Of a DNA stretch of 64,000 nucleotides, positions 32,171-33,625 are shown one piece after another. The notes under the pieces are model-generated. The model was not told where the DNA came from, did no database searches, and saw only the letters and a list, made by a program, of their open reading frames with translations. The stretch is from an uncultured Candidatus Obscuribacterales bacterium. GTDB lineage: Bacteria; Cyanobacteriota; Vampirovibrionia; Obscuribacterales; Obscuribacteraceae. The stretch lies in NCBI GenBank assembly GCA_964503045.1, contig CAZCZI010000011.1, forward strand, positions 62,895 through 126,894, read 5' to 3'. Numbering within the stretch: position 1 is the stretch's first letter; every line of letters starts with the position of its first letter. Both the position numbers and the translations under genes were made by a program.

Positions 32171-33625
32171 CTAGCTGCGCCTATTTGGAATCGAAAAACT
32201 AAATTTCGAGCCTTTGCCCAATGTGCTCTCCACCCAGATTTCACCGCCGTGTGCCTCGACTATCGTCTTACAAATGAAAAGTCCGAGACCTGAGCCTTTT
32301 TGGTTTTTGCTGTCTCGAATTTGATCTACTTGTTCGAATCTACTAAAGATGGCGTTTTGCATGTTATCGGGAATACCCTCGCCTTGGTCCTCCACAGAAA
32401 AGACAGTGTTATCTGCGTTTTGATTTACCGAAAGCGTAATTTGACTGTCAGGTGGTGAAAACTTCAATGCATTGCTTAACAAGTTTATGAGCACCTGCAC
32501 AAGACGATTGGGATCGGCTATAAACTCGACTTCGTTTTCCAAGGGTACAGTGACAATGGCGGCCTGCTGACCGCCACCTGTTTTAAGGCAATTTACAGCG
32601 TCATCGAGCAATTGATTCGGCGTGATGTCGATTTCTGAAAGAGATAAAGTGCCACGCTCGATATGATCGAAATCGATAAGTTCGTTGAGCATTGCAACCA
32701 ATCTTTTCAAAGTATTCGAAGCCGCCGAAAGCGATGCTTCGCCTTTTGAATTTGGTTCGCCGAAGGCTTGGGTCTGCGCCAGTGTGATGAATACTTCTAG
32801 CTCCAAAAGCGGTTTTCGCAAAGACGTACTCATGATTTCCAAGTATTGCTCGCGTTCCAAACGGGCTGCCCGAACACCCTCTACGATTTCGTGAAACGAA
32901 CGATCGAAAGAGGCTACTTCATCGGTTCCTTTAAGTGGCGGCAGAAGCGGTCGATTGTCTGCAAGGCGCTGTATGTTGTTTTCCATTCGGGTTATTTGCA
33001 TTACAACGTTTCTGCGAACCATGAGCCCGAGAAGAGTGGCGGCCACTATGTTTATTGCAACAGTAAAAATAATGGCGCAATAGATCATAGGACGCGCCTC
33101 ACTCGGTTTAGCCAGCGCATACTTCGCAGGTGGAGATAGCGCCTGCTGCTGCAGCCAATCCATTTGACTAATGGCGTCGGCTTTGAATGCATTGAATTGG
33201 CTCAGTACAACCGGGTCGCTGATCTTTCTTCTTTGCTTTTCCATTCCATCCATCAGAGTCGAAATGAATTGCATCATTCGATCTGAAAGACTGCTTGTGC
33301 ATTTTGCAAGGTCTTCAAAGGGCGGTCCAATGCTTCTGAGTGTGACAATTTCACTGTTCCACTCCTCGACCTGCCCGAGCGCTGATCCATACTGAAAGCC
33401 CGATCCTTCGTCTTTATCGAAAACATCGATCATCACTTTGCCGAAATCGTTCATCGCCGAGGCTACCATCAATACTTGTTTTACTGCTCTTAACGCAGTG
33501 AGTTGATAGTCGAGTGTGGTGGAAATGCTTCTGTACATGTTCGCGAAGACGATGATGATGAATAACTGCAATGCAAGCGGAATGCAGACAAGAATCAAGC
33601 CTTTGGTAAACAATCCAAGCCGCAT
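32171..33625 (-). CDS. Histidine-kinase paralog A1: intact ATP-binding (CA) domain, phospho-acceptor His replaced by Thr
   Basis: TM-sensor (~150 aa)-TM-HAMP-like (LKGTDEVASFDRSFHEIV). The DHp H-box reads YLEIMSTSLRKPL, with an ACG Thr codon at 32825-32827 where His is expected. N box LINLLSNALKFS, G1 EDQGEGIP, F box IFSRFEQ, G2 GSGLGLFICK. Confidence 0.85.
   Translation of the reverse strand: MRLGLFTKGLILVCIPLALQLFIIIVFANMYRSISTTLDYQLTALRAVKQVLMVASAMNDFGKVMIDVFDKDEGSGFQYGSALGQVEEWNSEIVTLRSIGPPFEDLAKCTSSLSDRMMQFISTLMDGMEKQRRKISDPVVLSQFNAFKADAISQMDWLQQQALSPPAKYALAKPSEARPMIYCAIIFTVAINIVAATLLGLMVRRNVVMQITRMENNIQRLADNRPLLPPLKGTDEVASFDRSFHEIVEGVRAARLEREQYLEIMSTSLRKPLLELEVFITLAQTQAFGEPNSKGEASLSAASNTLKRLVAMLNELIDFDHIERGTLSLSEIDITPNQLLDDAVNCLKTGGGQQAAIVTVPLENEVEFIADPNRLVQVLINLLSNALKFSPPDSQITLSVNQNADNTVFSVEDQGEGIPDNMQNAIFSRFEQVDQIRDSKNQKGSGLGLFICKTIVEAHGGEIWVESTLGKGSKFSFSIPNRRS

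Follow-up and report, generated by a model that had tools for sequence, protein, structure and literature searches.

Tandem gene pairs for reciprocally degenerate sensor histidine kinases in Obscuribacterales, a candidate two-gene kinase

Two tandem gene pairs with complementary losses

The window, a stretch of 64,000 nucleotides from an uncultured Candidatus Obscuribacterales bacterium (contig CAZCZI010000011.1), carries four paralogous genes for membrane sensor histidine kinases on its minus strand, arranged head to tail in the order B2-A2-B1-A1. The two A proteins have lost the phospho-acceptor histidine and kept the ATP-binding motifs of the catalytic (CA) domain, while the two B proteins present the reverse condition. 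The features of both pairs are as follows:

32171-33625, minus strand: A1, membrane sensor kinase paralogue of 484 amino acids, without the acceptor His and with the ATP-binding motifs of the CA domain intact
32825-32827, minus strand: codon ACG, encoding Thr267 of A1 where the phospho-acceptor His would stand
32456-32485, minus strand: N box of A1, NLLSNALKFS
32369-32389, minus strand: G1 box of A1, DQGEGIP
32330-32347, minus strand: F box of A1, FSRFEQ
32267-32296, minus strand: G2 box of A1, GSGLGLFICK
32267-32485, minus strand: whole span of the ATP-binding motifs of A1
33628-35094, minus strand: B1, sensor kinase paralogue and partner of A1, its H-box intact (His265) and its CA-like domain degenerate
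34300-34302, minus strand: codon CAC, encoding His265 of B1 (predicted to be the phospho-acceptor in pair 1)
34282-34308, minus strand: H-box of B1, VSHDLRSPL
33739-33963, minus strand: degenerate CA motifs of B1, RIVSFCLFAS (N box), EAHSPIE (G1) and HRHGLALARQ (G2)
35121-36563, minus strand: A2, second His-less and CA-intact paralogue, 480 amino acids, GTG start
35778-35780, minus strand: codon TCA for Ser262 of A2, at the acceptor position
36564-37997, minus strand: B2, second partner, His-bearing (His264, codon CAC at 37206-37208) and without ATP-binding motifs

A1 is laid out as two transmembrane segments with an outer loop of ~150 amino acids, a linker, the DHp domain and the CA domain, and all four proteins (A1, B1, A2 and B2) share the scheme of two hydrophobic segments around a loop of ~150 amino acids. 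Pfam searches of these four outer loops up to E=10 returned no match; a CHASE3 domain is present in canonical relatives.

Around residue 267 the A1 protein reads EQYLEIMSTSLRKPLLE, and around residue 262 the A2 protein reads QEYLDIVSSSLRKPLLD. In a phmmer alignment Thr267 sits on His260 of Thermotoga HK853 ('yleimstslrkpl' against 'fianishelrtpl'), and in a hidden Markov model (HMM) of the family the Thr of A1 and the Ser of A2 fall in the column occupied by His in the B genes and in canonical relatives. The preliminary description, made from the DNA alone, had read Thr267 and Ser262 as replacements of the acceptor His, and both alignments confirm this register. A shifted H-box can thus be ruled out; no further conserved His was found in the DHp domain of the A family, the His of an FDHIERG motif being limited to close relatives and the FH of the linker being common to canonical kinases. 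Since orthologues from independent assemblies (P0002, P0003, L010-L013) likewise have no acceptor His, its absence is not an assembly error.

The ATP-binding side of the A proteins is as complete as had been proposed. With Pfam cut-offs of 26.4 bits for HATPase_c and 26.9 bits for HisKA, A1 and A2 score 107.2 and 105.6 bits for the former, and only 13.4 and 16.5 bits for the latter. The motifs LLSNALKFS, DQGEGIP, FSRFEQ and GSGLGLFICK are all present, and the ATP-site residues N-N-K-D-G-G-F-G-G-G are intact in A1, A2 and the main A sub-clade. A1 and A2 therefore lack the H-box His that marks the canonical HisKA class while retaining the N, G1, F and G2 boxes of HATPase_c, and autophosphorylation of an A protein on the canonical residue is impossible. 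The similarity of the two paralogues in the DHp and CA regions also stands, although the identity of about 70% given earlier was somewhat high (61% in the DHp, 65% in the CA domain and 53% overall).

The B proteins are the mirror image. B1 and B2 score 45 and 51 bits for HisKA, with the H-box VSHDLRSPL intact in both, while HATPase_c remains below its cut-off (15.8 and 18 bits, respectively). Both N-box Asn residues, the G1 DxGxG and the G2 GxGxG are lost in the two proteins: B2 has RIIALCLYAS in place of the N box and EAFGPIE in place of G1, and GxGLGL of the G2 box has become HRHGLALA in the B genes. An AlphaFold2 model of B1 (mean pLDDT 87) nevertheless predicts a bundle of helices for the sensor, a hairpin for the DHp and an alpha/beta fold for the CA-like region. 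Structurally it matches kinase cores best, with the kinase region of RetS, which is itself poor in ATP motifs, at the top (TM-score 0.72-0.75).

Within each pair the genes are tightly joined, with the TAA stop of B1 lying 2 nucleotides before the ATG of A1, and the GTG of A2 following directly on the TAG stop of B2. The mechanically called open reading frame (ORF) of B2 extends to a TTG at 38048, which lies within a terminator-like hairpin (38048-38031) after gltA, the citrate synthase gene. Because this hairpin covers the TTG, and because an ATG at 37997 (MTLTQRA...) also matches the start of B1, the ATG is the likelier start. A promoter and terminator scan of 31500-39500 gave counts at chance level, and the hairpin after gltA was its sole useful element.

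The preliminary description had seen in the A genes kinases unable to phosphorylate themselves. The usual His is indeed absent, but the adjacent B genes, with the reciprocal defect, had been overlooked; this defect of the neighbour recasts A from a kinase that does not phosphorylate itself to the putative catalytic half of a two-gene kinase.

Conservation of the pair and single-chain relatives

Homologues place the organism in the Obscuribacterales (Melainabacteria/Vampirovibrionia). To set the window pairs among their relatives, the motif columns of all fetched loci were read with one HMM. Full-length A relatives of 36-79% identity keep the N, F and G2 boxes in all cases, and the G1 box in all but one sub-clade. 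Their acceptor position, on the other hand, is occupied by T, S, R, A, D or E across orthologous lineages, and the acidic residue that follows it (H+1) is lost too. Directly upstream of every A-type ORF for which the upstream flank is available and the two-gene arrangement intact, there is a B-type ORF with H-D-S/T-P, which invariably has Arg where the first N-box Asn would be and has neither G1 nor G2 (the two window pairs, L001/2/14/15, L003, L016-18, L006/7/24, L008/9/25, L010, L012, L020, L021 and L023). Besides the two pairs of the window, 13 further loci whose pair is intact show the reciprocal motif states. In all lineages checked the B stop overlaps or abuts the A start (TAATG, ATGA, GTGA, overlaps of 8-14 nucleotides, gaps of 0-2 nucleotides), often with GGAGG just upstream of the junction, a layout that, as read from the sequence, is the classic one for translational coupling.

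Two of the loci deserve a comment of their own. At L004:4517-6008 the upstream B frame is interrupted, giving ORFs of 311 and 208 amino acids, while L016-L018 have intact orthologues; the break stems either from a frameshift in the assembly or from inactivation in the recent past. The contig of L021 (CALRJJ020000384.1), filed under a metagenome-assembled genome (MAG) of Flavobacterium psychrophilum, bears an Obscuribacterales-type B-A pair and is probably mis-binned.

Selection has preserved both members of the pair. Among A orthologues the proportion of non-synonymous differences (pN) is 0.06-0.13, against saturated synonymous differences (pS) of 0.77-0.79; in B, pN is 0.09-0.20, and over both genes synonymous sites are saturated (pS 0.68-0.94). 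In domains with an estimable dS, dN/dS is ~0.03-0.09, a sign of strong purifying selection, which had been proposed for A from the two paralogues alone without the word strong, and the CA-like domain of B is itself constrained (dN/dS ~0.075 between L010 and L012). Mean identity over ten lineages is highest in the CA domain for A (0.46), and for B it is highest in the DHp (0.48) and lowest in the CA-like domain (0.27). This domain-wise conservation, of the CA domain in A and of the DHp in B, fits the proposed division of labour.

In a neighbour-joining tree with 200 bootstraps the A clade is monophyletic at 80% and the B clade at 100%, and the A and B sub-topologies mirror each other with 99-100% support on shared sub-clades. 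A and B are inherited and evolve together, and the mirrored trees point to a single origin of the split pair followed by co-diversification. In the A tree and the B tree alike, window pair 2 (35121-38048) is sister to a group formed by pair 1, L010 and L012. These two loci (L010, 2707-5686; L012, 1-2929) hold a single pair between gltA and an IS1595-type Zn-ribbon gene, the same flanks as in the window. The single pair between the same flanks, together with the branching of pair 2, indicates that the window holds a tandem duplication of a whole pair.

Two His-less proteins, P0024 (L005) and the first ORF of L031, were considered as members of the A clade and rejected, since both are closer to canonical kinases; they probably represent independent losses of the His. 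In P0024 one half is His-less with its CA domain intact, and the other is a DHp half that bears the His but has no CA domain. At L031:3203-6390 the gene for a His-less kinase (Glu at the acceptor position) whose ATP domain is intact overlaps the next gene, which encodes a fully canonical kinase; this could represent an intermediate stage in which one partner alone has degenerated.

The same complementary states recur within single polypeptides. A search of the B-family profile against 1.84 billion cluster representatives returned only nine clusters of single B-type proteins and many two-module proteins of 830-1300 amino acids. Motifs were read module by module in 152 proteins from this search, with P0176 (MBY0357195.1) and P0174 (MBA3995352.1) checked by eye. 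Reciprocal states were found in 62 of the 152 as two-module fusions, while 28 had two canonical modules. Within the reciprocal group, 46 proteins carry a His-less, CA-intact module followed by a His-bearing module with a defective CA domain, six show the reverse order, and in ten the CA domain is gone from the His-bearing module. The fusions (at least 60 clusters, proteins P0170-P0312) include the two checked by eye, and the named examples stem from Obscuribacterales and related MAGs. The residues that replace the His in fused relatives also include K, N, Q, G, V, Y or F, Ser being the commonest in one class of fused proteins of ~1250 amino acids. A rough tree combined with parsimony suggests that the losses arose more than once; outside the split A clade, its closest neighbours are canonical modules.

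As for the genes around the window pairs, the gene just downstream of A1 (30789-31712, minus strand) encodes an IS1595 Zn-ribbon and what is left of a DDE domain. Because it is syntenic in L010, L011 and L012, it has been retained and was not freshly inserted. Adjoining the citrate synthase gene, 39342-41663 (plus strand) encodes a 773-amino-acid Eco57I-like N6-adenine methylase, resembling a type IIG restriction-modification protein.

A proposed split kinase and its alternatives

Taken at the level of their motifs, the linked genes of each pair correspond to a split kinase, one appearing to hold the sole functional-looking ATP-binding domain and the other the sole acceptor His. A1 and A2 are probably the subunits that bind ATP and catalyse, in sensor histidine kinases each made up of two reciprocally degenerate gene products. 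From the sequence states, conservation, synteny, coupled junctions, co-diversification and fusions we infer a mechanism in which A would be made together with the upstream B by translational coupling. B, with its phospho-acceptor His, the catalytic acid next to it (H-D) and the DHp in its best-conserved form, would not bind ATP, while A would bind ATP and offer no His. Contacts between their DHp helices would hold both in a hetero-oligomer (a heterodimer in the simplest case), in which the CA domain of A would phosphorylate the His of B in trans. Phosphorylated B would in turn hand the phosphate to an OmpR-type response regulator, and the dead CA-like domain of B may have been retained as a structural or regulatory element. 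The probable source of such a pair is a homodimeric kinase of the CHASE3 type that was duplicated, after which the copies underwent complementary losses. We also lean, with some hesitation, towards the broader view that in Obscuribacterales a homodimeric sensor kinase was repeatedly converted to an asymmetric heterodimer that became fixed, with the ATP site in one paralogue and the His in the other, encoded either by coupled genes or by single-chain two-module proteins.

A candidate regulator of this type is found near some of the related pairs. L006/7/24 have an OmpR-type regulator in a regulator-B-A operon, and an orthologous OmpR-type regulator lies close to the pair in L008/9/25 and L023.

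The case for a split A-B kinase is built from sequence and context, and several observations weigh against it. No response regulator adjoins the window pairs, the nearest OmpR-type gene (48312-48986, minus strand) being ~10 kb away; its product is 42% identical to the regulator next to the B-A pair of L006. Complementation of this kind is confined to kinases that autophosphorylate in trans, and would call for a DHp handedness in A and B that permits this. The residue four positions after the His of B (H+4) is Ser, instead of the Thr/Asn usual in the phosphatase motif. Finally, one sub-clade of A has N-x-G-[T/V/P/L] as its G1 box, not D-x-G-x-G, with the N, F and G2 boxes intact, and this change from Asp to Asn might weaken ATP binding in the following genes:

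L008:5968-7476, L020:3236-4846, L021:2845-4359, L023:3323-4852: members of the A sub-clade with Asn in the G1 box

The kinase could also be split without forming a true heterodimer, if homodimers of A phosphorylated homodimers of B through transient docking of the CA domain of A on the DHp of B. Phosphorylation of CheA3 by CheA4 is a precedent (PMC3591291), A and B both retain complete DHp hairpins, and the sequence data do not separate an AB heterodimer from two homodimers. Nonetheless, translational coupling and strict co-inheritance favour a stable, co-assembled A-B complex, each single-chain A|B fusion has exactly one DHp of each kind, and FasB and FasC gave hetero- but no homo-interactions in two-hybrid assays (PMC12675982), so that we regard separate homodimers as unlikely. 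Less probable still is that A acts as a signalling pseudokinase in the manner of DivL, PsmA or RetS, through contacts or nucleotide sensing, with B serving as a phosphatase or phosphotransfer protein for another kinase. Non-catalytic, His-less kinase-like proteins are known (DivL, PsmA and RcsD; PMC4211667, PMC12963549), as is the inhibitory RetS-GacS heterodimer (PMC12189002), and a candidate for that other kinase is at hand in the window, where a canonical CHASE3-HisKA-HATPase_c paralogue (50669-52120, minus strand) lies near the 48312-48986 regulator, ~10-14 kb from the pairs. Yet the ATP-binding residues that PsmA-type pseudokinases lose are invariant in A over lineages only 36-40% identical (the G1 Asp of the sub-clade above excepted), and no part of A is better conserved than its CA domain, where a DivL/PsmA-type protein would be expected to have a drifting ATP site. 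B, moreover, retains the His and the catalytic Asp, yet no ATP site of its own, and the reciprocal pattern of the fused proteins (at least 60) is hard to explain without complementation.

Both window replacements being hydroxyl residues, the preliminary description had raised the alternative of phosphorylation on Ser/Thr, in which A would autophosphorylate on Thr267/Ser262 and the histidine-kinase fold would have become that of a Ser/Thr kinase. T or S also occupies the position in several other lineages, and Ser is frequent in the class of long fusions. However, a conserved phosphosite would not vary as this one does among the A orthologues and the fused relatives; A proteins encoded as split genes have also lost the acid at H+1, and the strictly linked B gene would be left without a role. 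We consider this reading very improbable. That the A genes are decaying, functionless duplicates might be supposed from the loss of the canonical acceptor and from the tandem duplication of the pair, but pseudogene decay is effectively refuted: the reading frames are intact, pN is far below pS, and the family has persisted through deep divergence, in each case along with its partner.

In the usual description, histidine kinases form homodimers and cross-pairing of paralogues is avoided. If the A-B pairs work as split kinases, obligate hetero-assembly would be a stable evolutionary outcome, trans-phosphorylation could become compulsory, and a single catalytic domain per dimer would suffice, nature having fixed the state of one active and one parked catalytic domain. 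A complex with two different sensor domains could integrate two inputs, and repeated origins would give bacterial signalling a clear example of how duplication and complementary degeneration lead to an obligate heteromer. As natural His-minus and ATP-minus mutants, these proteins would suit work on cis/trans directionality, catalytic asymmetry and two-input sensing. For annotation, the neighbouring gene should be checked before 'HisKA-only' or 'His-less' kinases are called orphans or pseudokinases.

Comparison with known systems

In the literature we found no description of this Obscuribacterales family or of reciprocal tandem kinases, but several systems share parts of its logic. For HK1/HK2 of Mycobacterium tuberculosis, Shrivastava et al. 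(2007) reportedly described a mechanism with the His-bearing and the ATP-binding parts in adjacent genes beside an OmpR-type regulator. The system is listed as HK1 (Rv0600c)/HK2 (Rv0601c)/TcrA (PMC9321153). HK1/HK2 is, however, one HisKA-type kinase cut in two, whereas A and B are each a full-length receptor with sensor, transmembrane helices, linker, DHp and CA fold.

Complementation between mutant subunits of EnvZ, said to have been achieved first by Yang and Inouye in 1991, follows the logic proposed for A and B, a His-less, ATP-competent subunit phosphorylating the His of a subunit with a dead ATP site. G2-box and H243A mutants of EnvZ complement each other in heterodimers, as only trans-acting kinases do, although there the complementation is engineered, takes place in vitro, and involves mutants of one gene and random subunit exchange (PMC4734776). 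The A-B pair, by contrast, is natural, with two diverged genes and different sensor domains, and is conserved across an order. A comparable asymmetry is seen in the kinase state of CpxA, which has one active and one sequestered CA domain (PMC3904827).

Acceptor and catalysis are likewise on separate polypeptides, forming a kinase only together, in the split CheA systems (CheA3/CheA4 of Rhodobacter sphaeroides; PilL-N/PilL-C, Hik36/Hik43, of Synechocystis; PMC3591291, PMC7656254). Those proteins use an HPt P1 domain and no DHp His, whole domains are absent instead of inactivated, and they belong to cytoplasmic chemosensory arrays, unlike the paired membrane sensors A and B. Among lone degenerate kinases, A resembles DivL and PsmA in having no His, and B, whose CA fold has no ATP-binding motifs, is similar in this to RetS (PMC4211667, PMC12963549, PMC12189002). 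DivL, PsmA, RcsD and RetS act by non-catalytic contacts or inhibition and not as strictly linked reciprocal pairs, and A, unlike such kinases, retains the catalytic ATP-site residues.

The closest tested analogue, by its division of labour, is FasB/FasC/FasA of group A Streptococcus (2025), in which the kinase domain is required in FasB only and the His is required in FasC (PMC12675982). There too, adjacent co-transcribed genes for sensor-kinase-like proteins split the work, the kinase domain of FasC being dispensable and FasC being termed a pseudokinase; a single response regulator lies downstream, and the two proteins bind each other but not themselves (PMC12675982). FasB and FasC nevertheless belong to an unrelated kinase class with six transmembrane helices, and FasA binds a ComE-like consensus site (PMC12675982). 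FasB still has candidate His residues and FasC a recognisable HATPase domain, whereas in A and B the losses are explicit on both sides. The A-B pair is of the HisKA/OmpR type, with two transmembrane segments and the His-bearing gene first, and would represent an independent origin of the same division of labour in Obscuribacterales.

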